Source: Eubacteriales bacterium (GTDB lineage Bacteria > Bacillota > Clostridia > Oscillospirales > CAG-272). From it: DNA of 64,000 nt. Made by a program: the position numbers and the translations under genes. Location of the stretch: the NCBI GenBank assembly GCA_045633625.1, contig JAZQYP010000038.1, positions 16,384-80,383 on the forward strand, given 5' to 3'. The notes under the pieces are model-generated. The model was not told the origin of the DNA. It ran no database searches and saw only the letters and a program-made list of their open reading frames with translations. The first letter of the stretch is position 1; every line of letters starts with the position of its first letter. Positions 10,352-62,609 of the stretch are shown one piece after another.

Positions 10352-10405
10352 TAACAAAAAAATGGCGCACCTGAAAAAACAGGTGCGCCAAATATGTTTT
10401 TTATT
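10352..10405. terminator. Bidirectional rho-independent terminator between convergent genes
   Basis: 10-bp GC-rich stem ggcgcacctg / caggtgcgcc with loop aaaaaa. An A-run lies on the left and a T-run on the right. Confidence 0.7.
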
Positions 10406-10456
10406 AAAGCTCCTCGACGAGATTTACTCCGTCAGCACGGGTGGATTTTTTCTATA

Positions 10457-44519: not shown

Positions 44520-47500
44520 ATGAAAAATACAAGAAGAATTCTTTCGGTTCTGTTGATAGTTTCCCTTATTTTGGGACCGATATCAATATTTATTCCCGTG
44601 TCGGCAGCAGAATCGGCGATAACAGTTAGTGATCTGAAGGTAAACAGCATTGATACCCCTCTTGGAATTGACACCACTCCTGTTTTTAGCTGGATCAACA
44701 ACGCAAGCGGTTACGGTAGAGCACAGAGTGCATATCAGATAATCGTTTCCTCCTCATACAAGAATGCTGTATCACACACAGGCGATATGTGGGATTCAGG
44801 CAAGACCTCGGGAAGTACCAACTATGACATTGCATACGCGGGTACTGCTCTTGAATCGAGGACAGTGTATTTTTATTCCGTTCGCGTATGGGATGAAAAT
44901 GATACTGCAAGTGAGTGGAGCGATATAGCTCGTTTTGAAACAGGCATTATTGATGATGCTGAGTGGACGGCAGAGTGGATAGGTGCGCTAAAGAATACGA
45001 TCCCCGAAGGTGAGACGTACGATCTTGAAGGTGCAAACTGGATCTGGAACGGAACGAAGACCGACGGAAAATATCCCGCATCAAATCCTTGGTTTATGAC
45101 ATCTTTTAACGTTTCTACTGCCAAAACAGTAAGAAGTGCTTATATGACTGCAGCTTTTTACGACTACGGTATCGTGTACGTTAACTCTGTATATACTGCC
45201 GAAAAGGTAGAAAACTGGAAAAACACAAAACAGGCGCGTATTGTTGACATAACCGACGTAGTAACTAGCGGGACTAACTATATAGTTGCATCGTGTGGAA
45301 ACAAGAATGCGGGCGACGCAGGCTTTATTGCTAAAGTATACATAAACTACACAGATGGAACACAGGATGTCTTTTATACCGATGACACCTGGAAGGTAAG
45401 GGCATCGGATCCCTCTACTGCTTGGTGGGCTGATCAGTTTAATGATTCGGAATGGTCAAATGCGACAGTTATCGGAGAATACGGCTGCAGTCCTTGGGGA
45501 ACTACGGTTACTGTTGATTACGATAACCTTCAGTTTGCAGATTCTGCACCCATGCTTCGCAAGACGTTTAATGTAGAAAAAGAGGTTCTTCGCGCAAGAG
45601 CATACGTTATAGGTCTTGGCCTTTTCGAGATGACTGTTAACGGAACGTTGCCTGATGATACGGTTCTTAATCCCGTTGATAGCTTGTACGAGGCAAGAGA
45701 GTTCGTTCAAAACAGCGGAACGGTTCGTTACCGTGTATTTGACGTAACAAAGCTCTTGAATGCAGGGGAGAACGCCGTAGCTATTGAGCTTGCAGGAGGA
45801 TATTATGACTGCGAGGAGGTAGTTGCGGTTGACTGGAACAATGCTGCGTGGCGTGACGATCCCACGGCCCGTATGGAGCTTCTTATCGAATATACCGACG
45901 GAACAAGCGAAACTATAATCACAGACGAAAGCTGGAAGTCCTATACCAATGGACCTACGACAAGATATACAGTTTTCTGTGGAGAAGTTTACGATGCAAG
46001 AAATGAGGTCGATGATTGGCAGCTTGCAAACTTTGATGACTCTTCTTGGAAGGGTGTTCGTGTTATGGAGGCACCTTACGCTGATATTCTTTATCAGACG
46101 ATAGAGCCGATGCGCAAGGTTAAATCGTTTGCTCCTCTTTCTGTCACGAAGCATGATAACGGAACGTATATCGTAAGACTTCCCGAAATGGCGACAGGCT
46201 GGGCAAGCATTGCATTTGATGCCCCCGCAGGAACACTTATTAAGATTTCTTATGCTGAAAGACTTAATAAAGACAATGGCAACATAAAGGTTCCGCTCAG
46301 TGGAAGCGACCATTTGCTTCAGACAGACGTATACGTTTGTAGTGGAGAGGCAGGGGAGACCTATGAGCCTAAATTCAGCTACAAGGGATATGAGTATATC
46401 CAGATAAGCGGATACACGGGCGAGCTTACAGTTGACGACATTACCTGCTACGTAGTTGCGACAGACGTTGAACAGACGGGTAGCTTTGAGACAAGCAGTG
46501 AATTTGTCAACGAGCTTCACGAGCTTATGCTTCGCACAATGGTCAACAATATGCAGGGAAAGCCTACCGATACCCCTGTTTATGAGAAGCTTGGCTGGAC
46601 GGGTGACTTTAACGTCGCTATGGACACCTTCAACTATAACTTCAATACTATAAATTTCACGGGTAATTTCCTTCACAATTTGCGTGACACCGGTAAGCCC
46701 GACGGACATCTTAACGAGTATGCTCCCTCTCCGATCATAAGCGGATGGAACGGCCCTGTCTGGACGCAGATGTACGTAAAGGGCATTTACGAGGCATGGA
46801 AGGTATACGGTCAGTTATCTCTTTCGGTTGAGCATTACGACTATATGAGAGCGCAGGCACAGTACAATATCACACAGATAGGTGATAATTGGATCTGGGA
46901 GGATAATGGATCGAGTCTTACACTCGGTGACTGGGCATCTCCCAACGGAGGTACTTCTCCCGATGAGGGCGGAATGATCTGCAATACGGCCGCTGTATAT
47001 AACGGACTCAGAATGCTCGCTGAAATTGCTGACGAGCTTGGCAAAACAGCAGACGCCGCAGAATACAGATCGGCAGCCGCAAATATTTATACTGCATTTA
47101 ATACAAAATTCTACAATGCTACAAAGGGATATTATGAAACGGGATATTGGGGAGGCTCTACCAGCCGTAACCAGTACCGTCAGACCTCGAATCTCGTGCC
47201 TCTTGCTTACGGACTTTGTCCTGAAGAATATAGAGAAAGCGTTGTAAATAATCTCATCGAACAAATTAAGAAGAATGGATTCCATCTTGATACGGGATGT
47301 ATCGGAACAGAGCTTCTCCTTCCTTTCCTTTGTGACGAGGGCTATGAGGACGTAGCTATCGCAATTCTTCTTCAGGACACCTATCCTTCATGGGGATATT
47401 ATCTTGCAGAGGGAAGCACGACGCTTTGGGAAATGTATAAGGATAGCGGAATTCGTTCTTATGACCACTACTTCCTCGGAACCTATGACGAGTGGTTCTA

Positions 47501-50500
47501 CAGTGGACTTGGCGGTATCCGCGATATGACAAACGGTTATGAAACGGTTACTATCAAACCCGTTATAACTAATGCTTTCGAGTTTGTAAACTGTTCTGTT
47601 GACACCGTTCGCGGAACGCTTACAAGTAACTGGAAAATAGAAAATGGTACGACTATTATGGAGATCGTTATCCCCGTAGGTACAACCTCGACCGTATATT
47701 TCCCGACTACAAATACAGCAGAAATTTTTGCAAACGGAGTTGCTCTTGCATCTCACGAGGGAATATCGGATGTTTCAGTTGACGGAGAATACGTAAAGGC
47801 TACCGTTGAAAGCGGAAGCTATACTTTTACACTTGACGCTCCCGAAAAGATGCTTCCCACAGTTGACGGTCTGATTTGTGAAAACGAGTACGCGTGGACG
47901 TCGGGAAAGTACGACAGAAACGTAACTGTTGACGGTGAATTCTACACTGTAACCGCCTACAACGATACTCAAATTCTCACGTCTCAGTTCTGGATGGATT
48001 ATGACGATGAATACCTTTATATCGCATATCGCGACAGAGTTCCCGGATATAAATCAGGACTCATTCTTGATCTTTATCCTAACCCCAAGGCAGGTGTTAA
48101 GGATCAGCTGACGATTGAGCTTTCATTCTCACGTGCGGTGGGTGAGAGCCAATATGCAGAGTATGACGATATAACTATAGCTGTTTATCAGTACGTTGAT
48201 AACGTTAAAAATAACCGAGTCACGCTGAATGCCGACGATTATATCGTAGATTCTGCGCGTTCGTGGCGCGATGACAACATAAAAAACAACAATAGCATTG
48301 AGCTTAAAATCAGCCGCGCAGCTCTTGCGTCATACGCAAAATCAACTTCGCTTGATAGTCTTGGTTTAAGAGGATTTATTACATCCGGAGCAAGTGCGGG
48401 ATACTACCCCGAAGCATGCTTTGGAGATAAAGGCTCTACCGTATTCCCGAATTATCTCCATGCCCATATCGGATACCATATATTCGGACTCAAAGAGCTC
48501 GATTCTATGGATCTTGGTGACTACGGACAAAAGAAGCTGGTTATAGGAAATGCTACTAAGGCAACCGCTGACGGTGTTGTAAAGAGCGATGAATATAGCT
48601 TCTCGCTCCTTGCAAAGAAGACAGAGGATGCTGCAAACACTTATTTCCACACAGCTAACGCTGCAACGTTTGCCAACACGGAATATGTGAATTTCCATAT
48701 TGGTGCAGACGAGAATAACATTTACATTGCGGCAGAGCAACAGGATTCGGATCTTGCCGCTTGGGCGAATGGTCTTTACATAAAGCTTGGCGCGAATCGA
48801 TCCTCCACAGATATTCCGATTCGAATCTATTTGGCATACTTAAATGAGCAAAAGCAACATACTCCCGAGATAGCTACTCCCGAGGCTTCTTTCGTGGCGT
48901 CTAATTATTATTCGTCACATATAGCCAAGGCAAACACCGAGACAAAGGTTATAACGTACGAGATAGTGCTCAACAGGAAGCATATCGCAAAGGTTTTGGG
49001 TGTAGAGGATACCGATGATCTGCTTATTGCTATTTCTCAAAAGACGAATAATAGCAATGGAATGTTCGTTCTTGGCTTCCAAAGCTCTTCTATTCCTTCC
49101 GATTACGTTTACACCGATTTTCCTGTATACGGATATCCTCACGTGCTCGATATGAGTGCTCTCAATGTGTGCGTTCACGATTTTGATAACGGAGCCGTCA
49201 AAAAGGAGGCAACGTGCTGGAGCAAGGGAATTATGCTCTATTCTTGCGAGCTTTGCGGTGAGGAGAGGGAAGAAATAATTCAACCCTTGACACATGAAGA
49301 GATAACTCTTCCCGCAATCCCTGTTTCTTGTACAGAGCCGGGTCTTACCGAAGGAAAAGCTTGTAGAGTATGCTTTGCGGATATTGTAGAGCAGCAAGAG
49401 ATATTGAGCGAAGGACATACCTATGAGGATGATTACGACTCTACCTGTAACGTTTGCGGAGAAACAAGAAGCATAACGTCAGCGCAAGTTAATACTTCGG
49501 GTGGCTCTGCGTCAATAGATGTCTTCGGATGCTACGTTCTCAATGAGGCACCGAATGTGATTTCTGTAAGTATTAATTGGGAGGATATGGAAGTATTTAC
49601 TTATGTGGTAAATGCTGAATGGAATTCGACAAATTACACTGAAGAAAAAACGAAAGGTGAATGGAAAATTTCTCCTGTTAAGATAGATATTGTTAATCAC
49701 TCAAATCAGAAGATAGGTGCAAAGCTTGATTTTACACCCGTGGAGGATACAACGGATGTTTACGGAATCAAGGGTAAATTTATCCTGTCGAACGTTTCGA
49801 GTAAAGAAGAGCTTGATGCGGTAAAGGCTGTAACTTCTATTGAATTGGCGAGCGCAGCTAAAAATAATGCGGCAGTGAGCCAGACGGTATATTTCCAGAT
49901 CACAGACGGCACGCTTACTTCTGATATAAACGAGACGATACTTGGAAACATAACCGTTACTATATCTGCTCTCGGCAACGATTCCGAGGACGAAAAGATT
50001 GCAGAGTATGAACGGTATCTTGAAACTGTAACATATCTTGATTTTGAGCTTACAGGCTCGCACAAGCCCTACTACATGGGCAGATGGTTTGCAAAAGAGC
50101 TTAGAGGCGTAGACTATATGGCAACTCTCACGGACGGAAGTCTATTGTATTTCCTTGTTGACGGTGCGGAGAGCTTTGACCTTGACTTTTACGTAAATAC
50201 CACAAGCTTTACTCCTTATTTTGCTTATTCCATTGATGGCGGAGCACCCGTAAGACAGCTTATTACCGATAAGACTGTATATCTGCCCGACACGGGTAAG
50301 CATACGGTAAGAATAATCGCTGACGGAATGGATGAGAGCGAGGGTAAGTGGAATTATGAAAAGGGATTTTACCTCAAGTCTGTTACTGCCTCCGAGGGCG
50401 GAGAAATTCGCGGAATAAAGCCTACCAATAAGACGATCTTCTACTTTGGTGACAGTATTACAGAGGGAGTATATGCGCTTGAGGCCGGTCCCATAGGAAA

Positions 50501-50996
50501 TAGCGCTACCAATTCCTATCCTTGGCATTGCTCAGAGAAGCTCGGCGCGGTTACTTATAGCGTTGGTTACGGTGGATCGGGAGTTACGACGACGGGTTCG
50601 TTCAACACCTTTATAAACGCTATCGACTATATAAGTGCTCATAGAGAGGTTACAGACGGCATAACACCCGACGTGATCGTTATAAATCACGGCACAAATG
50701 ACTATGGAAAGACAACAACAGAGGCATTTTATGTGGGACTTAAGGAAGCGATCGACAGACTCCGCGAAAAGTATCCTGATACGCCTATCGTTTATATGAT
50801 TCCTTTCTCAGGGCGTATGGCTGGTGACATCAGAATTGTCATTGCCGAGTATGAAAATGCCTACGTCGTTGAAACCACAGGCTGGGACATCTCCTTGACT
50901 GATAGCTTCCATCCTAATGCCGAGGGCGCAAAGAAGGCTGGAGAAAAGCTTGCAGATGCACTTGTGTCTATATTCGGAGAGGAGTTCTTTGAATAA
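44520..50996 (+). CDS. Giant (2158 aa) secreted multidomain enzyme: GH78 rhamnosidase, two CBM9-like modules, a Cys-rich module, a beta-sandwich region and a C-terminal SGNH/GDSL esterase
   Basis: The N-terminal roughly 1010 aa are colinear with the upstream GH78 (for example RLPEMATGWA, FSYKGYEYIQISGY). The C-terminus has SGNH blocks FYFGDSITEG, GYGGSG, INHGTNDY and DSFHPN. Confidence 0.9.
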   Translation: MKNTRRILSVLLIVSLILGPISIFIPVSAAESAITVSDLKVNSIDTPLGIDTTPVFSWINNASGYGRAQSAYQIIVSSSYKNAVSHTGDMWDSGKTSGSTNYDIAYAGTALESRTVYFYSVRVWDENDTASEWSDIARFETGIIDDAEWTAEWIGALKNTIPEGETYDLEGANWIWNGTKTDGKYPASNPWFMTSFNVSTAKTVRSAYMTAAFYDYGIVYVNSVYTAEKVENWKNTKQARIVDITDVVTSGTNYIVASCGNKNAGDAGFIAKVYINYTDGTQDVFYTDDTWKVRASDPSTAWWADQFNDSEWSNATVIGEYGCSPWGTTVTVDYDNLQFADSAPMLRKTFNVEKEVLRARAYVIGLGLFEMTVNGTLPDDTVLNPVDSLYEAREFVQNSGTVRYRVFDVTKLLNAGENAVAIELAGGYYDCEEVVAVDWNNAAWRDDPTARMELLIEYTDGTSETIITDESWKSYTNGPTTRYTVFCGEVYDARNEVDDWQLANFDDSSWKGVRVMEAPYADILYQTIEPMRKVKSFAPLSVTKHDNGTYIVRLPEMATGWASIAFDAPAGTLIKISYAERLNKDNGNIKVPLSGSDHLLQTDVYVCSGEAGETYEPKFSYKGYEYIQISGYTGELTVDDITCYVVATDVEQTGSFETSSEFVNELHELMLRTMVNNMQGKPTDTPVYEKLGWTGDFNVAMDTFNYNFNTINFTGNFLHNLRDTGKPDGHLNEYAPSPIISGWNGPVWTQMYVKGIYEAWKVYGQLSLSVEHYDYMRAQAQYNITQIGDNWIWEDNGSSLTLGDWASPNGGTSPDEGGMICNTAAVYNGLRMLAEIADELGKTADAAEYRSAAANIYTAFNTKFYNATKGYYETGYWGGSTSRNQYRQTSNLVPLAYGLCPEEYRESVVNNLIEQIKKNGFHLDTGCIGTELLLPFLCDEGYEDVAIAILLQDTYPSWGYYLAEGSTTLWEMYKDSGIRSYDHYFLGTYDEWFYSGLGGIRDMTNGYETVTIKPVITNAFEFVNCSVDTVRGTLTSNWKIENGTTIMEIVIPVGTTSTVYFPTTNTAEIFANGVALASHEGISDVSVDGEYVKATVESGSYTFTLDAPEKMLPTVDGLICENEYAWTSGKYDRNVTVDGEFYTVTAYNDTQILTSQFWMDYDDEYLYIAYRDRVPGYKSGLILDLYPNPKAGVKDQLTIELSFSRAVGESQYAEYDDITIAVYQYVDNVKNNRVTLNADDYIVDSARSWRDDNIKNNNSIELKISRAALASYAKSTSLDSLGLRGFITSGASAGYYPEACFGDKGSTVFPNYLHAHIGYHIFGLKELDSMDLGDYGQKKLVIGNATKATADGVVKSDEYSFSLLAKKTEDAANTYFHTANAATFANTEYVNFHIGADENNIYIAAEQQDSDLAAWANGLYIKLGANRSSTDIPIRIYLAYLNEQKQHTPEIATPEASFVASNYYSSHIAKANTETKVITYEIVLNRKHIAKVLGVEDTDDLLIAISQKTNNSNGMFVLGFQSSSIPSDYVYTDFPVYGYPHVLDMSALNVCVHDFDNGAVKKEATCWSKGIMLYSCELCGEEREEIIQPLTHEEITLPAIPVSCTEPGLTEGKACRVCFADIVEQQEILSEGHTYEDDYDSTCNVCGETRSITSAQVNTSGGSASIDVFGCYVLNEAPNVISVSINWEDMEVFTYVVNAEWNSTNYTEEKTKGEWKISPVKIDIVNHSNQKIGAKLDFTPVEDTTDVYGIKGKFILSNVSSKEELDAVKAVTSIELASAAKNNAAVSQTVYFQITDGTLTSDINETILGNITVTISALGNDSEDEKIAEYERYLETVTYLDFELTGSHKPYYMGRWFAKELRGVDYMATLTDGSLLYFLVDGAESFDLDFYVNTTSFTPYFAYSIDGGAPVRQLITDKTVYLPDTGKHTVRIIADGMDESEGKWNYEKGFYLKSVTASEGGEIRGIKPTNKTIFYFGDSITEGVYALEAGPIGNSATNSYPWHCSEKLGAVTYSVGYGGSGVTTTGSFNTFINAIDYISAHREVTDGITPDVIVINHGTNDYGKTTTEAFYVGLKEAIDRLREKYPDTPIVYMIPFSGRMAGDIRIVIAEYENAYVVETTGWDISLTDSFHPNAEGAKKAGEKLADALVSIFGEEFFE
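50004..50996 (+). repeat. Duplicated module, copy 1 (C-terminal beta-sandwich plus SGNH domain of the giant ORF)
   Basis: Long identical peptide runs are shared with 51183-52181: VTYLDFELTGS, YMATLTDGSLLYF, GKHTVRIIADGMDESEGKW, NSATNSYPWHCSEKLGAVTYSVGYGGSGVT, DSFHPNAEGAKKAGEKLADALV. Confidence 0.9.
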
Positions 50997-51032
50997 TCTC
51001 AGAGAGCACTAAATAAGTTAGGACGCTTGATT

Positions 51033-52181
51033 ATGATGAAAAAAATATTAGTGATTGTAATGACACTCAGTATTTTGGTATCCTTTTGCGCTTGTCGGTC
51101 AAATACCGACAGCGCAGAGGATATAGGTGAAACACAGATGAAAGAAACACTTGAAACAATGTCTGCTGAAGAGATAAGAATGACGGAATATACCGAATAT
51201 CTGAGTAGTGTGACATATCTTGATTTTGAATTAACAGGATCGAATGAGCCATATTATATGGGAAGATGGTTTGAAAAAAGTCTTCGCGGTGAAAAATACA
51301 TGGCAACGCTTACTGACGGCAGTCTTTTGTATTTCCTTATAGACGGTGCCGAGAGCTTTGATGTGATATTTTATGAGAATACTACCATTTATACACCATA
51401 TTTTGCCTACTCGATTGACGGTGGAGAGCCTGTAAGGCAACTGATCACCGATAAGACTGTGATGCTTCCCGATGCTGGCAAGCATACCGTAAGAATAATT
51501 GCTGACGGTATGGATGAGAGTGAAGGGAAATGGAAATATGAAAAGGGCTTTTGTCTTAGTGATATAATTCCTTCAGAGGGAGGATCAATATTAGGGATAA
51601 AACCCAAAAATAAGGTCATATTCTACTTTGGAGACAGCATAACCGAAGGCATCTACGCACTTGAAGCAAGTCCTCTTGGTAACAGTGCCACAAACTCTTA
51701 TCCGTGGCATTGCTCAGAAAAGCTTGGCGCGGTTACTTACAGCGTAGGATACGGAGGATCGGGGGTCACAAGAGAGGGTTCCTTTAATACCTTTATTATG
51801 GCTATTGATCACATAAGCGCGAACCGAGAAGTGTCGGATGGCATTATGCCCGACGTCATAGTTATAAATCACGGCACGAACGATTATGGCAGAGCTACCG
51901 ATAAGGAATTTGTCGAGGGACTCAAACTTGCCCTTGACCGGTTGCGTGAAAAGTATCCCGAAACACCAATAGTGTATATGGTTCCGTTCTCACAGCGAAA
52001 TGCGAGAAATATCATTAACTTAATTCCTACCTATGAAAACGCCTACTTTGTTAAAACAAATTCGTGGGGAATTAGCTGTACCGACAGCTTTCATCCAAAC
52101 GCTGAGGGCGCAAAGAAAGCAGGCGAGAAGCTTGCGGATGCACTTGTCGATATATTTGGCGAGGAGTTCTTTAATAATTAA
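51033..52181 (+). CDS. SGNH/GDSL esterase lipoprotein (stand-alone copy of the giant enzyme's C-terminal module)
   Basis: Lipoprotein-type signal (LVSFCAC), then sequence colinear with residues about 1830-2158 of the upstream ORF, with SGNH blocks conserved. Confidence 0.87.
   Translation: MMKKILVIVMTLSILVSFCACRSNTDSAEDIGETQMKETLETMSAEEIRMTEYTEYLSSVTYLDFELTGSNEPYYMGRWFEKSLRGEKYMATLTDGSLLYFLIDGAESFDVIFYENTTIYTPYFAYSIDGGEPVRQLITDKTVMLPDAGKHTVRIIADGMDESEGKWKYEKGFCLSDIIPSEGGSILGIKPKNKVIFYFGDSITEGIYALEASPLGNSATNSYPWHCSEKLGAVTYSVGYGGSGVTREGSFNTFIMAIDHISANREVSDGIMPDVIVINHGTNDYGRATDKEFVEGLKLALDRLREKYPETPIVYMVPFSQRNARNIINLIPTYENAYFVKTNSWGISCTDSFHPNAEGAKKAGEKLADALVDIFGEEFFNN
51183..52181 (+). repeat. 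Duplicated module, copy 2
   Basis: See 50004-50996. Confidence 0.9.
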
Positions 52182-52597: not shown

Positions 52598-52617
52598 AGG
52601 CACTCAGTGTAACGAAG

Positions 52618-52660
52618 ACAAGGCGCTCGAGCATATGTTCGGGCGCCTTGTTTTATTTTA
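52618..52660 (+). terminator. Orphan terminator hairpin (near-copy of 25311-25350)
   Basis: caaggcgctcga gcatatgt tcgggcgccttg followed by TTTTATTTT. There is no upstream + strand ORF within about 430 bp. Confidence 0.55.
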
Positions 52661-52815: not shown

Positions 52816-53010
52816 ATGCAAGAGATGAATCAAATGCCAGAACGATGGTTTTCGACAAAGGAAATGTGTGCCTACCTCGGCGTAACACGTGACACTTTGC
52901 TTACATGGATAAATGAAAAGGGAATGCCAGCGCACAAGGTCGGCCGTGGTTGGAAGTATAAGCCCAGCGAGGTCGATGAGTGGATCAAGAGCGGAAAGGC
53001 GGCTGAATAA
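52816..53010 (+). CDS. Excisionase/MerR-type helix-turn-helix DNA-binding protein
   Basis: 64 aa. STKEMCAYLGVTRDTLLTWINEKGMPAHKVGRGWKYKPSEVDEWI fits the excisionase-family HTH pattern (..L.V...T.Y.W...G..P..K.G..W.....E...W.). Confidence 0.75.
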   Translation: MQEMNQMPERWFSTKEMCAYLGVTRDTLLTWINEKGMPAHKVGRGWKYKPSEVDEWIKSGKAAE

Positions 53011-53723
53011 TGACAGAAGCAACGGTAGAAATACTTACAAGTATTATTTCAAGTGTTTTGGGTGGATTGGTTGGCGGTCTTTTTACCTTTCTTGGAGTAA
53101 AAATGACAATTAACCACGAGGAGAAAAAAGAAAGACGAGCAAAAGAAGAATTGATTTTGCAAAGTCGTCCTAGATTGGATATAGTGGATTTCTTTGAAAT
53201 TGACAAATATACAACTAGTTCAAAAGCAGACGAAAGTCTTATAATTGCAACCATTGAAGAGTTTGATAATGGTCAATTTATGTATGACGACGAAATTCTT
53301 AATGAAGAAAAATGGGCTTCGGTAGAATATATTTTGAAGAATATTGGTTCAACAGAAATTGATCATATGTATTTTTCAACCAATTATATGAAAACCACCT
53401 CTGTGTTTGACAATTTCGGTATTTATGGTAGACACTTCCCTGAGAAAAATATGTTGAATTATTCTGTTTATTCTAACAGGAAAATAAAACCCAGAGAAAC
53501 TTTTTGCTTGCAGATAAATTTTCTTGATGATAAAATTATTGCTTCACAGGTTCGTGCTTTGATGACGATTTGGTTAGTAGATATAAATGGTAATTGGTGG
53601 AAACAACAATTGTTCGCTCCTTATAAACAGATTGACAATTCTCTTAAAACAGCGCATAAAGAATGGTATGATTCTGTTAATCAAGCAGAAGAAACCAGAT
53701 GTTATTTTTATCCTGTAGAATGA
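53010..53723 (+). CDS. Uncharacterised 237-aa single-pass membrane protein
   Basis: N-terminal TM helix (ILTSIISSVLGGLVGGLFTFLGV), then a charged linker and a soluble domain. The start overlaps the HTH stop (TAATG). No family recognised. Confidence 0.7.
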   Translation: MTEATVEILTSIISSVLGGLVGGLFTFLGVKMTINHEEKKERRAKEELILQSRPRLDIVDFFEIDKYTTSSKADESLIIATIEEFDNGQFMYDDEILNEEKWASVEYILKNIGSTEIDHMYFSTNYMKTTSVFDNFGIYGRHFPEKNMLNYSVYSNRKIKPRETFCLQINFLDDKIIASQVRALMTIWLVDINGNWWKQQLFAPYKQIDNSLKTAHKEWYDSVNQAEETRCYFYPVE

Positions 53724-53753
53724 TAAATATAACTTACGAAAGAGAGAAACAAG

Positions 53754-55493
53754 ATGACAGATAAAGAATTAAAGAAACTGAAAGACGACCTTTGGCACTC
53801 GGCGGACGTGCTTCGTTCAAGTGCGCATTTGGCGGCAAATAAATACGGTCAACCCATTCTTGGCTTGATCTTTCTTCGCTATGCAGATATTCTCTACAAG
53901 CAGCACAAGGACGAGATTGAGGCAGAATTTAAGAAATACGAAGGCACTCGTATGGAAAAATCCATTAAGGAAATCTCCATTGAAAAATGCGGCTTCTATC
54001 TGCCCGAGTGCGCTTACTATGATACCATCAATAATGCGCCCGATACGGCAGAAAAAGCGAAGCTTGTAAAGCTTGCGATGGAAGCAATAGAGGAATACAA
54101 TCCTAAGCTTGCAGGCGTCCTTCCCAAAGAAGTGTATGCAGGGCTTGTTCCCGACGAAGAACCCGAGCTGCTTTCCCGTATCGTTAAGATTTTCAAGGAT
54201 ATCCCCGAGAATATCAGCATCGATCTTTTCGGTGAGATTTACGAATACTTCCTCGGCAACTTCGCACTTGCCGAAGGCAAGGACGGCGGAACATTCTATA
54301 CACCTGCAACCGTTGTTCGTTATATGGTAGAGGTATTGCAACCCGAAGCGGGTGCTGAAAAGAAGTTCCTCGACCCTGCTTGCGGTTCGGGCGGTATGTT
54401 CGTGCAGGCGGCGAGATATATGCACAAGCACAACGCAAGCGCATCGGCTATGATGAATTTCCGTTGTTATGGTGTAGAAAAAGAACCCGATACGGTAAAG
54501 CTCGCAAAGATGAATCTGCTTCTTAACAACGTGCGCGGAGAGATTACCGAAGCCAACTCTTTCTATGCCGATCCTTACAACGCCTTTGAACAGTTTGACT
54601 ACGTTATGGCAAATCCGCCCTTCAACGTAGATGAGGTTGTTTACGAAAAGGTAAAGGACGATAACCGTTTCAATACTTACGGTGTGCCGAGAAATAAGTC
54701 TAAGTCCACCAAGAAGGAATCCGACAAGAAAGAAACTGTACCGAACGCAAACTATCTGTGGATCGGATATTTTGCGGCGGCGCTGAATTGGCAAGGCAAA
54801 GCAGCACTCGTTATGGCAAACTCTGCATCCGATGCAGGCGGTAGTGAATACGAGATCCGCAAGAAAATGATTGAGGACGGCATTATCAGTCAGATGGTAA
54901 CGCTTCCGTCCAATATGTTCTCGTCGGTTACACTTCCCGCAACACTTTGGTTCTTTAACAAAGCAAAAACGGAAACAGAAAAGCGCGATGAGATCCTGTT
55001 CGTTGATGCGAGAAACGTTTTTACACAGGTTGACAGAGCGCATAGAAAGTTTACCGACGAACAGATCAAAAATCTCGGCATCATTACCCGTCTTTACGAG
55101 GGCGATACCGAGGCGTTTGCCGCATTGATCGCAGAATATAAGTCTGAAATGGAAGTTGCTCCCGAGGTTGCCGAGGACAAGGATACCAAAACGAAAGCGT
55201 ATTGGCAGGAGCAGATGGAATGGCTGACAAGCCGTTTCCCCGACGGCGTTTACCGTGATGTAGTGGGTCTTTGTAAGGTTGCCAAAATTGAGGGCGAGGA
55301 CGGAATTAAAGATCAGGACTATTCGCTCAATCCCGGACGCTACGTTGGTGTAGTCATCGAGGATGACGGAATGACCGCAGATGAGTTTAAGGCAGAAATG
55401 CTGTCTCTTAATGATGAGCTTGCGAAGTTGAATGATGAGGCGCGCGAGCTCGAAACTAAAATTTCAGACAACTTAAAAGGATTATTTGAATGA
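53754..55493 (+). CDS. hsdM: Type I restriction-modification system, methyltransferase subunit
   Basis: HsdM_N-like N-terminus (LWHSADVLRS), AdoMet motif I LDPACGSGGMF and catalytic motif IV VMANPPFN. Confidence 0.95.
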   Translation: MTDKELKKLKDDLWHSADVLRSSAHLAANKYGQPILGLIFLRYADILYKQHKDEIEAEFKKYEGTRMEKSIKEISIEKCGFYLPECAYYDTINNAPDTAEKAKLVKLAMEAIEEYNPKLAGVLPKEVYAGLVPDEEPELLSRIVKIFKDIPENISIDLFGEIYEYFLGNFALAEGKDGGTFYTPATVVRYMVEVLQPEAGAEKKFLDPACGSGGMFVQAARYMHKHNASASAMMNFRCYGVEKEPDTVKLAKMNLLLNNVRGEITEANSFYADPYNAFEQFDYVMANPPFNVDEVVYEKVKDDNRFNTYGVPRNKSKSTKKESDKKETVPNANYLWIGYFAAALNWQGKAALVMANSASDAGGSEYEIRKKMIEDGIISQMVTLPSNMFSSVTLPATLWFFNKAKTETEKRDEILFVDARNVFTQVDRAHRKFTDEQIKNLGIITRLYEGDTEAFAALIAEYKSEMEVAPEVAEDKDTKTKAYWQEQMEWLTSRFPDGVYRDVVGLCKVAKIEGEDGIKDQDYSLNPGRYVGVVIEDDGMTADEFKAEMLSLNDELAKLNDEARELETKISDNLKGLFE

Positions 55494-56215
55494 CAACAGA
55501 AGAACTTTTTGAATCGGTTGGATTTGTTGGAGAATATTACTCGCAAATGTCTGATTTTTATAAAGACAATTTTGATTTGGAAGAGGATATGATTTCGTTT
55601 TTTATAAAAATATTCAAAAATGATAAAAATGACAAAATTCCTCGTCAAATGATGAATCAAGTACAGCAGCTTGTGTCGATTGCAACCGATATTGATCAGA
55701 TTCGTCCTGCGCGTGATCCGCTTAGAATGTTCTTTATCAAAACATGTTTGGAAGCGTTATGTGAGTTGTCGGGAATGAACAACAAAAAAGACAAACCCAT
55801 TTTTTACGAGATATTTCCAACCTTTATCAGCACGGAGGGGAAACAATATATTCTTGATAATTTTTTGTTAATGAGTTTCGATGACATATATATGAACCAT
55901 AAATATGAAGCATATCACGAATTAACCATTGATGATTTTTTTGAAATTATTAAAGCAGTTCGAGATATCGTGGCACATGAGGGAAACTATTGGGAGATGC
56001 AATTCTTTGCACATAACACAACAGACACGACCTGGGTTGTATCTTTGGAAACGAATCGAAAAATACTAAAATCTTATCAATACAAGTGTGAAGAGAATAT
56101 AACACGAGAATATCACTTTGAAACGACAATGCAATATGATAGGTTTATATATTATTTCATCGAAGCGTGCATTGGCTTTATTGTCAATTACATTGATAGA
56201 AAGGAGGCGGTATAG
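55490..56215 (+). CDS. Uncharacterised 241-aa protein with R-x4-H (HEPN-like) motif, embedded between hsdM and hsdS
   Basis: The ATG overlaps the hsdM stop (ATGA). Motif VRDIVAHEG lies at 55958-55984. No P-loop and no TM helix. Composition is A/T-rich. Confidence 0.75.
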   Translation: MTTEELFESVGFVGEYYSQMSDFYKDNFDLEEDMISFFIKIFKNDKNDKIPRQMMNQVQQLVSIATDIDQIRPARDPLRMFFIKTCLEALCELSGMNNKKDKPIFYEIFPTFISTEGKQYILDNFLLMSFDDIYMNHKYEAYHELTIDDFFEIIKAVRDIVAHEGNYWEMQFFAHNTTDTTWVVSLETNRKILKSYQYKCEENITREYHFETTMQYDRFIYYFIEACIGFIVNYIDRKEAV

Positions 56216-56218
56216 ATA

Positions 56219-57346
56219 ATGAAAACTACGAGATTTAAACTAAAAGACATATTAAAAATCAAAAACGGACGTGACCATTCTCACCTTGAAATAGGCGATT
56301 ATCCTGTTATAGGTAGCGGTGGTATTATGAGATATGCCGATCAATATCTGTATAATGGTGAAAGTGTTTTGCTTCCCCGTAAGGGTACATTGGATAACAT
56401 TCAATATATAAACGGAGCTTTTTGGACTGTTGATACTTGCTATTATACCGATATAAACAAAAATATTGTCAACCCTTATTATCTATATCGTCATTTGCGA
56501 AGTCTTGATTTGAGCGGGCTTGACTCGGGTGCGAGTATTCCAAGCATGACATCAAAATGTTATTATAATATAAAAATAGATTTGCCTTGCCTCCAAATAC
56601 AAAATCAAATTGCTGATATTCTTTCGACCTATGATGATCTGATTGAGAACAACAATCGCAGAATTGCTCTTTTGGAGAAAGCGGCGCAGGAGCTTTACAA
56701 GGAGTGGTTTATCCGCTTCCGTTTCCCCGGTTATGAAAACGCCAAGTTTGAAAATGGTCTGCCCGAGGGGTGGAATGTAAAGAGAATGAATGATTTTTGT
56801 TACGTTACAGACGGAACACACGATACTCCCAAGCCTTTAGACGAAGGTTTTCCGCTGATAACAGGCAGATGTATCAAAAACGGCTTTGTTGACTTTGATG
56901 AAGCTTATTGTATAAGCAAAAAAGATCACGAAAATATCAAAAAGCGCAGCGGGCTTTCCTCGGGCGATATTCTTTTTAGCAATATCGGCACAGTTGGTAA
57001 CTGTTGTATCGTGGATTATAGTAGAGAGTTCAGCGTAAAAAATGTGATTATTTTCAAACCCAATGATATGGTACAAACCGCATATCTCTATTATTGGATG
57101 ACGAGCCATTCTATGCAAGAAATATTTGCAACGCAAACGAATGGTGCATCACAACAGTTTGTTGGTCTAACCTTTATGCGCCGATATAAAATTCTTGTTC
57201 CCGAACAGGAAATTTTGACAGCGTTTGGAGATAAGATTTTGCCAATATTGGAGCAAAAGAGGCTGTTACATAATAACAATTTGAATCTCGCAAAACAGCG
57301 TGATTTACTCTTGCCGCGCCTTATGAGTGGCAAATTGGAGGTGTAA
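56219..57346 (+). CDS. hsdS: Type I restriction-modification system, specificity subunit
   Basis: 375 aa with two target-recognition domains separated by the conserved helical spacer (RIALLEKAAQELYKEWFIRFRFPGYE) and the C-terminal repeat (NLAKQRDLLLPRLMSGKLEV). Confidence 0.92.
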   Translation: MKTTRFKLKDILKIKNGRDHSHLEIGDYPVIGSGGIMRYADQYLYNGESVLLPRKGTLDNIQYINGAFWTVDTCYYTDINKNIVNPYYLYRHLRSLDLSGLDSGASIPSMTSKCYYNIKIDLPCLQIQNQIADILSTYDDLIENNNRRIALLEKAAQELYKEWFIRFRFPGYENAKFENGLPEGWNVKRMNDFCYVTDGTHDTPKPLDEGFPLITGRCIKNGFVDFDEAYCISKKDHENIKKRSGLSSGDILFSNIGTVGNCCIVDYSREFSVKNVIIFKPNDMVQTAYLYYWMTSHSMQEIFATQTNGASQQFVGLTFMRRYKILVPEQEILTAFGDKILPILEQKRLLHNNNLNLAKQRDLLLPRLMSGKLEV

Positions 57347-57348
57347 AA

Positions 57349-59280
57349 ATGGATAATCGAGTAAAGTATTATCCGCCTACAGATTTGTTCTTCGGGCATA
57401 ATCTTTCTAAAATTGAAGCAATCGAGGTTCCTGCTTTTGAGGCAATTGATATTAACGATGCGATTGAATTTTTTCAAATAAAAAGATACTTAGATACGGG
57501 AACTCGGTCAAAAACTTGGAGTGATGAAGCATATGAGGAATATAAAGCAAAATGCGAATCTCTTTCAAGGCTGACAAAACGTTTTTTTAATCAACTCAGC
57601 GACGATAATATAATTGATTATTATAATAGGATCGAAATGGGGTATCATTCCGACTTTTGGGTTCTATTTGACAACTGCAAGTTATTCAATAAAATAAAAA
57701 ATGAAACGTTTGAGGCATTGATCAATGGAGATAAAATCTCTCCTCACGATTTGTTTTTGCACAAAAATATTGTTCGCAAGTATGGTAATGAACTAAGAAA
57801 CTATATAATTCAGAATGAATACTGTATTATCATTCTTTTGCATGTGTATGAGCAGGACTATACTGATAGCGAAAAACTCATTTTGCCTGCCGAATTGACG
57901 GGAGAAGATATATGTAACTACCTTGAAAGTTATATCGATGGAGAACACCCGAATACAAATCATCTTAGCACTATTATCGATATGCACTGCACAAATCAAT
58001 TCCCAATCACCGATGAAATACGGTTGAAGGCAAAAAGAAGATACGAAAAAGAACTTGAAAATATATCTCAAACGGGTGTCAGCATTTCGCACGGAATCCA
58101 AATATCCTTTAACCCCGATCAGGAAAAAGAAAAGATTGGTACGCATAACGACCATGAATTTTCAATTTCATATAGCACAAAGTGGCTATTGGAAACACTT
58201 GATTACCCAAGCATACTAAACAACTTTATTTATCTGTTTGAGTTTGTGGACGTGCCTCAAATGAGGTGTTCCCATGTGAATAGGATATCGCAATCGGGTG
58301 TGTTTGAGCGTGTTCTCGCCTCTAAATCGTCGAGAGCATATCCTCATAATTACGCTTTCGGTTTTTCCAATGGAATAGCCTCAATGCAAATGCATGCCTA
58401 TTACGACTTTTTGGCAAGGCAAAATATTCGCTTGGAAGATGTAATAAAGTGGTTTTTTACTGAGCAAATACAATCCGAATTTGGTTGTGCGGAAATTCGG
58501 TTGTCTATGCCTTCTTCCGATAGTACTTATGCGGAAAAGTGTTCTTCCATCATTACCGCTTTTGAATCGGTTTTGAAACAATACTCGCTATATGTTAAAA
58601 ACGGAGAGATTGATTTTGAGCTTGTCGGGATGTCAACAACTCCGGTGCTTTTTGCTAATATTAAAAGTTTAGTCGAAGACAAGTATATCTACGGCGTTGG
58701 CGACGATTATAAGCGATTGTCCTTTTGGTTTTTCTCTGATCAATGTACGTTCTCTTTTATCGAGCGAATACACAAAGAAGGTCGTAATTATGATTGCTTT
58801 ATAGACCTAATGTTAAAGGAAACGGTTTATACTTACGATTATCGAGAAGAAGAACTATGGGCTTTTGAAAATATGGCAAGTTACGATCTTATAGCTATAG
58901 GTGACGATGGGAAAATAACTCTCAAAAACTTAGCAAAATTAGCGATGTTGCGTGACTTGTTCGAAAATGATGTTATCAGCAAGTGGCACTATCCACCGGA
59001 AGCGAAAGAGGCTATTGGTGATTTTATAGAAAAAGGCATTATAACAACCAAGTCAACTCTGTTTTCACAACCGGAAATTGATTACCTTAATTATCTGCTT
59101 AATCGTGCAGAATATACCAACGGCTTGGAAATTCGCAATAGATATATACACGGAATACAGCAGGTAAGCACCAATGAGGACGAGCATAGGCAAAACTACT
59201 TTATGTTGCTTAGACTTTTTGTTCTGCTTGCAATAAAAGTTAATGATGATTTTTGTTTGCGTGATGAACAGAACCAATAA
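57349..59280 (+). CDS. Uncharacterised 643-aa protein with C-terminal R-x4-H (HEPN-like) motif, embedded between hsdS and hsdR
   Basis: It starts 2 nt after the hsdS stop. Motif EIRNRYIHG lies at 59128-59154, followed by one predicted hydrophobic helix. No P-loop, TM helix or signal peptide. Very A/T-rich codon usage. Confidence 0.8.
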   Translation: MDNRVKYYPPTDLFFGHNLSKIEAIEVPAFEAIDINDAIEFFQIKRYLDTGTRSKTWSDEAYEEYKAKCESLSRLTKRFFNQLSDDNIIDYYNRIEMGYHSDFWVLFDNCKLFNKIKNETFEALINGDKISPHDLFLHKNIVRKYGNELRNYIIQNEYCIIILLHVYEQDYTDSEKLILPAELTGEDICNYLESYIDGEHPNTNHLSTIIDMHCTNQFPITDEIRLKAKRRYEKELENISQTGVSISHGIQISFNPDQEKEKIGTHNDHEFSISYSTKWLLETLDYPSILNNFIYLFEFVDVPQMRCSHVNRISQSGVFERVLASKSSRAYPHNYAFGFSNGIASMQMHAYYDFLARQNIRLEDVIKWFFTEQIQSEFGCAEIRLSMPSSDSTYAEKCSSIITAFESVLKQYSLYVKNGEIDFELVGMSTTPVLFANIKSLVEDKYIYGVGDDYKRLSFWFFSDQCTFSFIERIHKEGRNYDCFIDLMLKETVYTYDYREEELWAFENMASYDLIAIGDDGKITLKNLAKLAMLRDLFENDVISKWHYPPEAKEAIGDFIEKGIITTKSTLFSQPEIDYLNYLLNRAEYTNGLEIRNRYIHGIQQVSTNEDEHRQNYFMLLRLFVLLAIKVNDDFCLRDEQNQ

Positions 59281-59297
59281 TACCAAAGGAGAAAGAT

Positions 59298-62200
59298 ATG
59301 TCAAGATTTATATACGAAGACGACATAGAAAAAGCGTTACTCGACAAGTTAGCTGCCGAGCCGTTTTGCTATGACGTCATCACTTGTGATCCTTCGACAT
59401 CATCAAAAGAGAATATAAACGACGGAACGGGACGCGCAAGCAAAAAGCAGTGTGTTCTGCCCGCCGTGCTGCGTTCCGCGCTGATTCGTATCAATCCCAC
59501 GATCCCTGCCGAGGTGCTCGACGGTATCGTAAAGGATCTGTGCCGCGATTTCACGGGTGTGGATATGAAGGCGGTCAACTACAAGCTCTATCAGCAAATC
59601 CGCAACTACATAAAGGTGTCGGTAAGGCGGGGCGGCAAGCAGGACTTTGATTTTGTCAAGCTGATTGATTTTGACAAACCCGAAAACAATACTTTTACCG
59701 CAGTTTCGCAGATGTGGATCGAGGGGCGTTTTAATTGGCGTCGTCCTGACATTATCATCTTTGTCAACGGACTTCCGCTTGTATTTGTGGAGCTTAAGAA
59801 CAGCGACGTTAAGGTGGAAGAAGCCTATAATCGCAATCTGAAAAGCTATCTCAAGGACGTTCCCAATCTCTTTGCTTTCAATCAGATCTGCGTGCTTTCC
59901 AACGGACTTGAAACAAGGCTCGGTGCGTTTTCCGCTACCTATGACTATTTCTTTGAATGGCTGAAAGCAAGTGAGAATGAGAGAATTGACCGCAAGGCAA
60001 TCTCTGAAGACGGTGTTTCGCTGTCTTACTTTGCGGACGGTTTGTTGCCGAAAGCAAATTTGATTGACTACATTGAAAACTTCATATTGTTTGAGAATCA
60101 GTCAATCAAGATTATCGCAAAGAACCACCAATATCTCGGTGTTAATAATTTGATTGAGTCGGTTAAAGATCGCAAGGCGTTGCAGGGCAAGCTCGGCGTA
60201 TTCTGGCATACGCAAGGAAGTGGTAAATCTTACTCGATGGTTATGTTTACCCGCAAGGTCAAGCGTAAGATTGAGGGAAACTTTACCTTCCTTATCATCA
60301 CCGACCGCGACGACCTTGATACACAGATCCACAAGAACTTTGTTCGTACCGAGGTTATCGGCGACAAGGAAGAATGTCAACCCAAGAACGGTGCGCAGCT
60401 TCGTGAATACCTGCAAACCAATAAATCGTTTATCTTTACGCTGATTCACAAGTTTAATTACGATAAGACCAAGAAGTATCCCGTGCTTTCCGAGAGGGAT
60501 GACATTATCGTTTTGGTTGACGAAGCTCACCGCACGCAGTACAAGAGCCTTGCGGAGAATATGAGAACAGCGCTTCCCAATGCCAATTATATTGCCTTTA
60601 CGGGAACACCCCTGCTTGGCGCTAAACGTTTGACAAACCAATGGTTTGGTAACTACGTTTCGGAATATAACTTTGCACAATCGGTCGAGGACGGCTCTAC
60701 CGTGCCGCTGTTTTATAGCCGCAGAGTGCCCGAGGTTTGGCTTGAAAACGATTTCCTGGACGATGACGTACTTGACATTATTGAGGACGAAAACCTCAAT
60801 GAATCCGAAACAAAGCTCCTTGAAAATTCCTCATCGAGAATCCTTGAGGTTATCAAGCGTGATGACCGACTTGATAAAATTGCAAGAGATATCGTACATC
60901 ATCTGCCTCGTCGCGGATTCCGTGGCAAAGCAATGGTAGTATCGGTGGATAAATATACTGCCGTAAAGATGTATGATAAGGTCCAGCACTATTGGGGTGA
61001 GGAAAAGAAAAAGCTTGTTGCCGAAAGGAACAAAGCCGCAACTAAAGAGGAACGAGACCAGATTTCCGCAATGATCGATTATATGAACAGGATGGAGATG
61101 GCAGTTATCGTTTCCGAAGAAGCTGACGAGAATCAAAAGTTCGCGGCGCAGGGGCTTGATATTTCTTCTCACCGTGCCAAGATGAACGAGATCACACCCG
61201 AAGGAAAGGACATTGAAGATCGTTTCAAAGACCCTACTGATCCACTTCAGCTTGTATTCGTATGCGCAATGTGGCTGACGGGATTTGACGTTAAGAGTCT
61301 TTCGTCTGTTTATCTTGATAAGCCTATGAAGGGACATACTCTGATGCAGGCAATTGCACGTGCAAACCGTGTATTCCCAACGAAAACTTGCGGTATTATC
61401 GTGGATTACGTCAACGTTTTCAAGTATATGAAGAAGGCTCTTTCGGACTATGCTTCGGGCGATGATGACACCGAATTTCCGGCTAAAGACATCGATCAGT
61501 TGATCGTTAACATTGATTCTTGTATTGATGAAACCGATGCCTTCTTGAAGGAAATGGGCATTGATCTTGACAAGATTATTGCCGAGGCTTCTACTTTCGA
61601 TAAGCTTGACGAATTGCGTGCGGCATATAATAAAATCATTGCTACCGACGATGCAAAGGATCGTTTTAAGGTCTTGGCGAACACAACGATTAATCTATAC
61701 GAAGCTGCTAAACCCGAGATATTCGAGCAGAGTTGGACAAACGAAAAGTTCTCGCCAATATCCTATTTGCACGGTCTTTTCTACAATTACATTGACGATG
61801 AAAAGATCAATCGTGCGCGTCTTCGTATGGCGCAGGTGCTTGACACAAGCATTTCTTCAAACGTGAACTTAGATGCCGATTCCGAGTATGTGATTCACGG
61901 CTCAAAGGTTATCGATCTTTCAAAAATTGATGTGGACGAGCTTCGTTTGGAAATCAAAAAGACTCCGTACAAGGCAATAGAAATCGACGATTTGAAAAAG
62001 TATTTGGAAGAAGCTCTCCAAAAGATGATTAACAAGAATTGCACTCGTGTGAAGTTTTCGGAGCGTTTCAAAGGCATCGTTGACAGATATAACGCCGGAG
62101 GATCGGAGAATGAGGATTACTACGAGCAGTTAATCAAATTGCTCGAAGAAATGCAAGCCGAGCAGAAACGTGCCGATACGGAAGGGTTGAGCGAGGAAGA

Positions 62201-62507
62201 ACTTGAAGTTTACGACCTTTTGATTAAAGGCAAGAAGCTCACAAAAGCCGAGGAACAGAAGGTGAAGCTTGCCGCAAAGAATCTCTATAAGAAGCTCACG
62301 GAAGAAAAGGCAACTCTTATGGTGGTGGATTGGTATAAGGACGATCAGCCCACAGAGCGAGTCAAAAACGCAATCAAAGAGTCGCTCAACATTGACCTTC
62401 CCGAGTGCTATGACAAGGATTCTTTCAATGCCAAAACCGTTCTCCTCTTGAACCATTTCATTGATATGGCGGTTCAAGGATACGGATGGGTTGGAGCGAG
62501 CGCATAA
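59298..62507 (+). CDS. hsdR: Type I restriction-modification system, restriction (helicase-nuclease) subunit
   Basis: 1069 aa with N-terminal PD-(D/E)xK region (RPDIIIFVNGLPLVFVELKN) and SF2 helicase motifs I HTQGSGKS, II VLVDEAHRTQ and VI QAIARANR. Confidence 0.95.
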   Translation: MSRFIYEDDIEKALLDKLAAEPFCYDVITCDPSTSSKENINDGTGRASKKQCVLPAVLRSALIRINPTIPAEVLDGIVKDLCRDFTGVDMKAVNYKLYQQIRNYIKVSVRRGGKQDFDFVKLIDFDKPENNTFTAVSQMWIEGRFNWRRPDIIIFVNGLPLVFVELKNSDVKVEEAYNRNLKSYLKDVPNLFAFNQICVLSNGLETRLGAFSATYDYFFEWLKASENERIDRKAISEDGVSLSYFADGLLPKANLIDYIENFILFENQSIKIIAKNHQYLGVNNLIESVKDRKALQGKLGVFWHTQGSGKSYSMVMFTRKVKRKIEGNFTFLIITDRDDLDTQIHKNFVRTEVIGDKEECQPKNGAQLREYLQTNKSFIFTLIHKFNYDKTKKYPVLSERDDIIVLVDEAHRTQYKSLAENMRTALPNANYIAFTGTPLLGAKRLTNQWFGNYVSEYNFAQSVEDGSTVPLFYSRRVPEVWLENDFLDDDVLDIIEDENLNESETKLLENSSSRILEVIKRDDRLDKIARDIVHHLPRRGFRGKAMVVSVDKYTAVKMYDKVQHYWGEEKKKLVAERNKAATKEERDQISAMIDYMNRMEMAVIVSEEADENQKFAAQGLDISSHRAKMNEITPEGKDIEDRFKDPTDPLQLVFVCAMWLTGFDVKSLSSVYLDKPMKGHTLMQAIARANRVFPTKTCGIIVDYVNVFKYMKKALSDYASGDDDTEFPAKDIDQLIVNIDSCIDETDAFLKEMGIDLDKIIAEASTFDKLDELRAAYNKIIATDDAKDRFKVLANTTINLYEAAKPEIFEQSWTNEKFSPISYLHGLFYNYIDDEKINRARLRMAQVLDTSISSNVNLDADSEYVIHGSKVIDLSKIDVDELRLEIKKTPYKAIEIDDLKKYLEEALQKMINKNCTRVKFSERFKGIVDRYNAGGSENEDYYEQLIKLLEEMQAEQKRADTEGLSEEELEVYDLLIKGKKLTKAEEQKVKLAAKNLYKKLTEEKATLMVVDWYKDDQPTERVKNAIKESLNIDLPECYDKDSFNAKTVLLLNHFIDMAVQGYGWVGASA

Positions 62508-62576
62508 CCATACAATTATTTGTTTAAGGTGAACACAAAACGAAGTATGGTGATAAACCTTAACACACACAATTCG

Positions 62577-62609
62577 ATAGGGACGGATATCCGTCCCTAT
62601 CTTTTTTTA
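62577..62609. terminator. Rho-independent terminator after hsdR (between convergent genes)
   Basis: Stem atagggacgg / ccgtccctat, loop atat, then cT7. Confidence 0.75.

Follow-up and report, generated by a model that had tools for sequence, protein, structure and literature searches.

PrrC, the anticodon nuclease of the prr locus of Escherichia coli, has its gene in a type I restriction-modification (R-M) operon, in the gap between hsdS and hsdR; it combines an N-terminal ABC-type ATPase with a C-terminal ribonuclease (RNase) of the HEPN class and has been found almost exclusively in such embedded positions (Payne et al., bioRxiv 10.1101/2024.01.29.577857). ApeA (~583 residues) possesses helical N-terminal and middle domains and a split C-terminal HEPN domain with insertions, is activated by deoxydinucleotides and cleaves the tRNA anticodon (Juozapaitis et al. 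2026, bioRxiv 10.64898/2026.01.26.701840), and DARNA (PD-T7-3) joins a HEPN domain to a helical-repeat domain that senses single-stranded DNA, acting as an abortive tRNA anticodon nuclease without a nucleoside triphosphatase (NTPase) (Puteikiene et al. 2026, bioRxiv 10.64898/2026.02.22.705581). Links between HEPN genes and R-M systems had been described in at least 16 clades by 2013 (Anantharaman et al. 2013, PMC3710099). Here we have analysed a 64,000-nucleotide stretch of DNA from a Eubacteriales bacterium (contig JAZQYP010000038.1, positions 16,384 to 80,383; referred to as the window), in which an open reading frame (ORF) of 643 codons occupies the same slot as prrC, as the original prediction had stated (hsdM-hsdS-X-hsdR; Table 1). 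The gene belongs to PDC-S56, a catalogued family of candidate defence genes, and its product carries a near-invariant RNxYxH motif close to the C-terminus. Judged from these sequence features, we consider the chances evenly balanced that it encodes a HEPN-class RNase effector of the stand-alone, abortive-infection type, and somewhat better than even that it serves in defence of any kind.

The assignment to PDC-S56 is clear: the 643-residue protein matches PADLOC profile PDLC05039 with an E-value of 5.6e-205 over residues 2–641 (profile positions 5–644 of 649). Searches of the same protein against Pfam and NCBIfam gave nothing meaningful, and Pfam scans of 38 full-length homologues returned just four weak matches to DUF4209. 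PDC stands for phage defence candidate: 145 such families were chosen for not resembling mobilome or housekeeping genes and for recurrent embedding in BREX, DISARM or type I R-M systems; they are "guilt-by-embedding" picks made without experimental testing (Payne et al. 2024, bioRxiv 10.1101/2024.01.29.577857). A search of the supplementary tables of that study yielded no annotation for PDC-S56. The original prediction had allowed that the gene might prove to be a known family, such as an accessory component of R-M. It is known in the sense that it is catalogued, as a candidate defence family of untested function, but it is not an R-M accessory subunit.

PDC-S56 is large and widely spread. We found 967 homologues in a database clustered at 90% identity, all of them named "hypothetical" and free of Pfam domains, and grouping at 50% identity gave 1,703 clusters (E-values up to 1e-3), nearly all of ~640 residues and aligned over their full length. 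Matches in genomes come from Bacillota (Clostridia, Paenibacillus, Salinicoccus), Actinomycetota, Bacteroidota, Cloacimonadota, Desulfovibrionaceae, Treponemataceae, Mycoplasmatota and a Pacearchaeota bin; nine plasmid records also carry the gene (Enterococcus, B. thuringiensis, Pseudoalteromonas), some of these plasmids being conjugative, and a tblastn search of 50,697 phage records returned no homologue. A second sub-model, PDLC05038, describes a 580-residue protein, such as the one encoded by E. faecium plasmid pVBR48, in which part of the 450–510 stretch is missing and the "...LAIRNKYLHG..." end is retained.

The conservation of the C-terminal motif carries most of the argument. Across 140 family representatives that are 28–46% identical to the 643-residue protein, just 24 of the 643 positions are conserved at 95% or more, and four of these fall within the RNRYIH hexapeptide: R596 (0.99), N597 (1.00), Y599 (0.97) and H601 (1.00), which is far above chance. 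The same four residues together with G602 are invariant in 38 homologues down to 46% identity. The position originally assigned to R596 and H601 was read correctly, the codons giving R-N-R-Y-I-H, and both residues passed the conservation test that the original prediction had proposed. HEPN active sites are described as Rx4-6H, the arginine being followed by a polar residue (N, D or H), together with an upstream acidic residue, often within Ex3[KR] (Anantharaman et al. 2013, PMC3710099). E576 precedes the motif by 20 residues, and N585, Y617 and K630 (0.99) are conserved in its vicinity; further upstream, position 406 is acidic in 139 of 141 sequences and position 410 is lysine or arginine in 137 of 141, so that [ED]406-x3-[KR]410 may represent a second HEPN signature. 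At the level of sequence, PDC-S56 thus fits the HEPN signatures. The protein contains one other Rx4-6H pattern, at R94, which we dropped as it is not conserved.

The remaining features named in the original prediction were largely upheld. A Walker A pattern ([AG]x4GK[ST]) is absent from the 643-residue protein and present in two of 141 family representatives, and no ATPase family of Pfam matched either this protein or the 38 homologues. The highest Kyte-Doolittle mean over 19 residues is 1.5, so that no transmembrane helix is predicted; a transmembrane reading of the last helix was rejected on this value, on the 33-residue length of the helix and on the conservation of K630 and N632. As for the statement that the N-terminal part holds no recognisable motif, it stood with regard to known families but not with regard to conservation: P180, N292, D301, Y351, K445, S463 and Q465 are conserved among the 140 representatives, in addition to the [ED]406-x3-K410 pair.

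Relatedness to HEPN families was sought with 61 C-terminal fragments (from residue 566), each scanned singly against Pfam. DUF4209, which is the C6orf70 HEPN family (PMC3710099), was matched by 14 of the 61 fragments, HEPN_RiboL-PSP by ten (best E-value 0.0011) and HEPN_Apea, the sole further HEPN family, by two; DUF4209 and HEPN_RiboL-PSP are the only families matched by more than two fragments, with two unrelated families matched twice. The alignments fall on the motif and the last helix: positions 144–190 of the 191-position HEPN_RiboL-PSP profile align to residues ~587–634, and positions 55–84 of the 89-position DUF4209 profile to residues ~590–621. These sub-threshold similarities serve as a lead, not as proof of membership.

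The AlphaFold2 model of the full-length protein, based on a 38-sequence alignment, reached a predicted local distance difference test (pLDDT) score of 91.7 and a predicted template modelling (pTM) score of 0.83, and a separate model of residues 330–643 (pLDDT 90.5) displays the same layout. The predicted chain is mostly helical up to residue ~245; next come a three-stranded sheet (249–276), three long helices (335–418) and two small alpha/beta modules, a stretch that is partly absent from the 580-residue sub-family (~470–570). At the C-terminal end, a helix carrying E576 (574–584) and a short helix containing the motif (595–600) precede the 33-residue terminal helix. The original prediction had described this end as the last two helices of a HEPN fold: the sub-threshold Pfam alignments agree with that layout, but Foldseek retrieved no HEPN match.

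A number of results weigh against the HEPN reading. All Pfam HEPN matches lie below the gathering scores (18.3 against 28.4 bits, for example) and span the motif and last helix alone (~30–48 residues), and sequence searches of the PDB with full-length and C-terminal profiles yielded no match even at an E-value of 10. The fold search was equally unsuccessful in producing the HEPN-like match that the original prediction had proposed to look for: with the full-length model the best match in the PDB was a PUF repeat protein (E-value 0.14), the Csx1-Crn2 HEPN protein being found at 1.1, and with residues 330–643 the best E-value was 0.88, nothing being significant. PDC-S56 is a putative defence family in all its members, and the papers searched do not mention it by name. 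The weak matches of residues 330–643 were mostly winged-helix proteins of PadR, GntR and MarR type (E-values 0.9–6), and the full-length model also gave nothing significant among the viral structures of BFVD (best E-value 0.07); the PUF/HEAT-like and winged-helix matches are at chance level and we use them as description only. For the N-terminal ~470 residues no relatives were detected by Pfam, NCBIfam, PDB sequence or fold searches. Foldseek performs weakly on short or split helical bundles. The HEPN domain of ApeA, characterised as a "structurally diverged split HEPN", could be recognised only with GTalign (bioRxiv 10.64898/2026.01.26.701840). On the basis of the models at hand, the HEPN fold of PDC-S56 is unconfirmed.

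We also compared genome loci carrying PDC-S56. Clustering of the ORFs over 80 loci revealed no conserved partner gene, and a multi-gene system was rejected on this ground. We treat a locus as evaluable if the gene has 3.5 kb or more of sequence to either side; of the 49 such loci, six (~12%; five scored and one, L060, added on inspection) show hsdS-X-hsdR embedding. The other 43 are not embedded: two of them have type I genes nearby, and most have no type I gene within 10 kb. The embedded copies belong to two distant type I lineages, with HsdM ~78% and ~37% identical to that of the window, and in the latter lineage the PDC-S56 protein is just ~30% identical to the window protein: the use of the hsdS/hsdR junction is therefore either recurrent or old. 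Elsewhere, the immediate neighbours are of the kind usual in defence islands and mobile DNA: Schlafen-type and DEAD helicases, KAP NTPases, HpaII with a C5 methylase, DUF2357, Fic, resolvases and PDC-S71, and on enterococcal plasmids also TIR and AbiC-like genes and recombinases.

Loci from the R-M lineage of the window itself (HsdM 78–83% and HsdR 74–75% identical across L004, L012 and L084) differ in their inserted genes. PDC-S56 is present in L004 and L012, where the 241-residue gene that separates hsdM from hsdS in the window is missing, and absent from L084 (HsdM 83%, HsdR 75% identical), which has this gene and the 237-residue gene found 5' of hsdM. Since the R-M lineage occurs with and without PDC-S56 and with and without the 241-residue gene, these embedded genes are independent cassettes. 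PDC-S56 also diverges faster (48–59% identity) than the flanking hsdM and hsdR (74–79%).

From these features we infer an RNase activity, dimerisation, a sensor role, an RNA target and a defence phenotype that could combine as follows. The protein would act alone as an abortive-infection effector against phages, its C-terminal ~70 residues carrying a metal-independent RNase site of the HEPN type formed by R596, N597 and H601, with assistance from the upstream acidic residues E576 and/or E406; like other HEPN enzymes, it would have to pair with a second copy of itself to build the active centre. The preceding ~570 residues, comprising the helical region and the two winged-helix-like modules, would sense and regulate, keeping the RNase inactive in the absence of an infection cue. 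Upon such a cue, the activated enzyme would cleave RNA of the host and so stop translation, anticodon loops of tRNA being the most plausible target. The window copy would then be a cassette inserted at the hsdS/hsdR junction and co-transcribed with the type I R-M genes as a second line of defence, its control being independent of the R-M proteins. A bolder version of this proposal is conceivable, though we regard it as doubtful: PDC-S56 might be a very large, so far unrecognised clade of HEPN-class RNase defence effectors, with the catalytic bundle split by a ~170-residue winged-helix insert and with a sensor of new fold, in which the winged helices read a nucleic-acid cue (phage DNA or the state of the adjacent R-M complex, for instance) and switch the RNase on; if true, this would be a new coupling of DNA sensing to RNA cleavage within one polypeptide.

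The position of the window copy invites comparison with PrrC, namely with a guard that is held inactive by the HsdMS/HsdR complex and released once a phage anti-restriction factor disables this complex. The shared slot, the PrrC logic as summarised in PMC3710099, the tight packing of the operon (gaps of 2 nt and 17 nt, an own ribosome-binding site and no internal terminator) and the occupation of the same junction in two distant type I lineages are all compatible with such a guard. We nevertheless hold it to be quite unlikely: PrrC-type masking is disfavoured as the general mode of PDC-S56 because ~88% of the loci lack an R-M context, unlike the almost exclusively embedded PrrC, and because the protein has no ABC ATPase; neither a conserved partner gene nor a match to the PADLOC hidden Markov model of PrrC was found. 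The dependence on the R-M complex implied by the original prediction thus does not agree with the six embedded loci among 49 and the variable defence-island or mobile surroundings of the others, although masking of this kind might occur in the embedded members.

Two further explanations leave the R-M complex aside. RNxYxH could have a structural role, or bind a ligand or nucleic acid, in a novel, mostly helical protein with winged-helix modules, for instance a regulator that binds DNA or a sensor without catalysis, any effector activity then residing in another part. Binding without catalysis is known from some HEPN-like domains (PMC3710099), Foldseek produced no HEPN fold and its weak C-terminal matches are winged-helix transcription factors, and equally conserved polar residues far from the motif (N292, D301, K445, S463, Q465) may mark another site. 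However, non-catalytic HEPN domains typically lose the arginine and histidine, and R, N and H are near-invariant in PDC-S56; the recurrent sub-threshold Pfam matches are to catalytic HEPN families and the winged-helix matches are not significant (E-values of at least 0.9), so that we judge a non-RNase function to be unlikely. A selfish, toxin-like addiction module of mobile elements, inserting into operons without any anti-phage benefit, appears improbable. Its attraction lies in the presence of PDC-S56 on conjugative and other plasmids, beside serine recombinases and insertion sequence elements, in the Resolvase and Recombinase domains among its immediate neighbours and in the guanine-cytosine (GC) content of the embedded genes (0.33–0.39, against 0.43–0.475 for hsdM and hsdR), yet mobile defence genes share such associations, which therefore do not separate addiction from defence; moreover, no small antitoxin-like neighbour is conserved and no homologue occurs in the phage records.

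Among characterised systems, ApeA and DARNA are the closest analogues of PDC-S56 in their presumed logic, with no homology detected to either. Like ApeA, PDC-S56 is a single, mostly alpha-helical protein of ~580–640 residues with no NTPase and with Rx4H near the C-terminus, and large N-terminal and middle regions that, by analogy, are proposed to act as the sensor; some ApeA genes are also embedded in R-M operons. The differences are a lack of significant sequence similarity, HEPN_Apea (PF18739) being matched below threshold by the two fragments mentioned above and the 643-residue protein matching neither this family nor the PADLOC ApeA model, and the winged-helix-like modules, which are absent from ApeA. 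The resemblance to DARNA would again be one of logic, namely a HEPN-type site and a large helical sensor in the absence of an NTPase: DARNA has 456 residues and carries its HEPN domain at the N-terminus (R117x4H122). DUF4209/C6orf70 (PF13910) and HEPN_RiboL-PSP (PF18735) share with PDC-S56 the order RN-x3-H(G) followed by a long C-terminal helix, and bacterial DUF4209 members occur in R-M-related operons (PMC3710099); the scores, however, are ~13 bits (threshold 22.3) and ~18 bits (threshold 28.4), respectively, and the upstream parts are dissimilar.

That this gene is an embedded defence candidate, catalogued as PDC-S56, was already known. By contrast, the near-invariant HEPN-type RNxYxH motif with its acidic partners as the most conserved feature of the family, the lack of detectable structural relatives for the rest of the protein and the fact that PDC-S56 is mostly not embedded in R-M do not seem to have been reported in the literature open to searching. 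Given that links between HEPN and R-M are known in so many clades, a specialist would not be very surprised. If the RNase site does work, one family among the 145 untested candidates of PADLOC would acquire an effector chemistry, R596A and H601A would be the two obvious knock-out mutations, and the HEPN tRNases that possess large sensors but no NTPase (ApeA, DARNA), a class now emerging, would gain a member carried by gut Clostridia, Paenibacillus, Actinomycetota, Bacteroidota and enterococcal plasmids. The locus would also offer a convenient natural setting in which to study possible cooperation between embedded effectors and the host R-M system.

The operon around the window copy is compact, with all genes on the plus strand and tightly packed in the order 237-residue gene, hsdM, 241-residue gene, hsdS, 643-residue ORF and hsdR; the three hsd genes are identified by strong matches in Pfam, NCBIfam and PADLOC. 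Terminator-like hairpins flank the block and none comparable to them lies between hsdM and hsdR on the plus strand: the simplest reading is therefore that the block from the 237-residue gene through hsdR is one transcription unit. The lower GC content extends over positions 55500–59500, covering the 241-residue gene, hsdS and the 643-residue ORF, and the higher over hsdM (53500–55500) and hsdR (59500–62500), which is consistent with cassettes gained separately from the R-M core. The coordinates of the features are collected in Table 1.

Table 1. Features of the PDC-S56 gene and of the surrounding type I R-M operon (window coordinates).
Feature	Position	Strand	Basis and remarks
Upstream terminator-like hairpin	52615–52654		flanks the operon on the other side
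237-residue protein	53010–53723	+	directly 5' of hsdM; hydrophobic N-terminal stretch (from translation)
hsdM	53754–55493	+	N6_Mtase (E-value 2.8e-75), HsdM_N (Pfam)
241-residue gene	55490–56215	+	between hsdM and hsdS; 4-nt overlap with hsdM
hsdS	56219–57346	+	Methylase_S (E-value 5e-31, Pfam); ends 2 nt before the 643-residue ORF
Ribosome-binding site GGAGG	57337–57341	+	within the last hsdS codons, 7 nt 5' of the ATG of the ORF
643-residue ORF, PADLOC PDC-S56 member	57349–59280	+	ATG start; ORF list
Residues 1–469, proposed sensor/regulatory part	57349–58755	+	AlphaFold2; mostly alpha-helical, many conserved polar residues
E406-S-V-L-K410, [ED]-x3-[KR] pair	58564–58578	+	long helix 394–418, ~190 residues before the motif
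Residues ~470–570, two small alpha/beta modules, tentatively winged-helix-like	58756–59058	+	AlphaFold2; H-H-E-E and H-E-H-E (H, helix; E, strand)
E576, acidic	59074–59076	+	20 residues before the motif; 1.00 conserved (140 representatives); predicted helix 574–584
R596-N-R-Y-I-H601, proposed RNase catalytic residues	59134–59151	+	Rx4H with N after R; codons cgc aat aga tat ata cac
Terminal helix, residues 610–642	59176–59274	+	AlphaFold2, DSSP; conserved Y617, K630, I631, N632; not transmembrane
hsdR	59298–62507	+	TIGR00348 (E-value 1.8e-145); HSDR_N, SWI2_SNF2 (Pfam); starts 17 nt after the ORF
Terminator-like hairpin	62576–62601	+	11 pairs and T run; closes the operon

The protein encoded between hsdM and hsdS is without a match in Pfam, NCBIfam and PADLOC and possesses an Rx4H motif of its own, RDIVAH, of which R158 and H163 are invariant across 78 homologues, G165, Y167 and W168 also being conserved. 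In L084, the locus that lacks PDC-S56, a 44%-identical homologue occupies the same hsdM-X-hsdS slot. On these sequence features, the gene could be another uncatalogued, HEPN-like embedded candidate; the hsdM/hsdS and hsdS/hsdR junctions of one type I lineage thus take independent cassettes that bear Rx4H. The 237-residue protein matched no family. A 38%-identical homologue (258 residues) is also encoded 5' of hsdM in L084; this type I operon may thus include the gene as an additional, conserved component.

Other PDC-S56 loci show arrangements of their own. Acidaminococcus fermentans (L076, 7866–~11800) carries two tandem PDC-S56 paralogues of 659 and 655 residues on the same strand, which could represent a heterodimeric variant, HEPN enzymes acting as dimers. 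In Anaerosporobacter faecicola (L001/L007, 6829–9885), the PDC-S56 homologue follows a DEAD/ResIII helicase of 1,018 residues, the C-terminal half of which matches PDC-S71 (E-value 1.7e-43), so that two untested candidates are adjacent outside R-M. In a metagenome-assembled genome from Mycoplasmatota (L040), two copies of a three-gene set (clusters c40-c1-c41, with products of about 90, 620 and 400–450 residues) bracket the PDC-S56 gene (~10001–11902); cluster c1 recurs in 14 loci, and the arrangement resembles a cassette of mobile or defence type present in two copies.

Upstream of the R-M block, the window encodes a secreted protein of 2,158 residues (44520–50996, plus strand), the last ~330 residues of which recur in closely similar form in the product of the following gene (384 residues; 51027–52181, plus strand). 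The shared module spans "...TYLDFELTGS..." to "...GEEFF", and the smaller gene is a paralogous C-terminal module located beside its parent.

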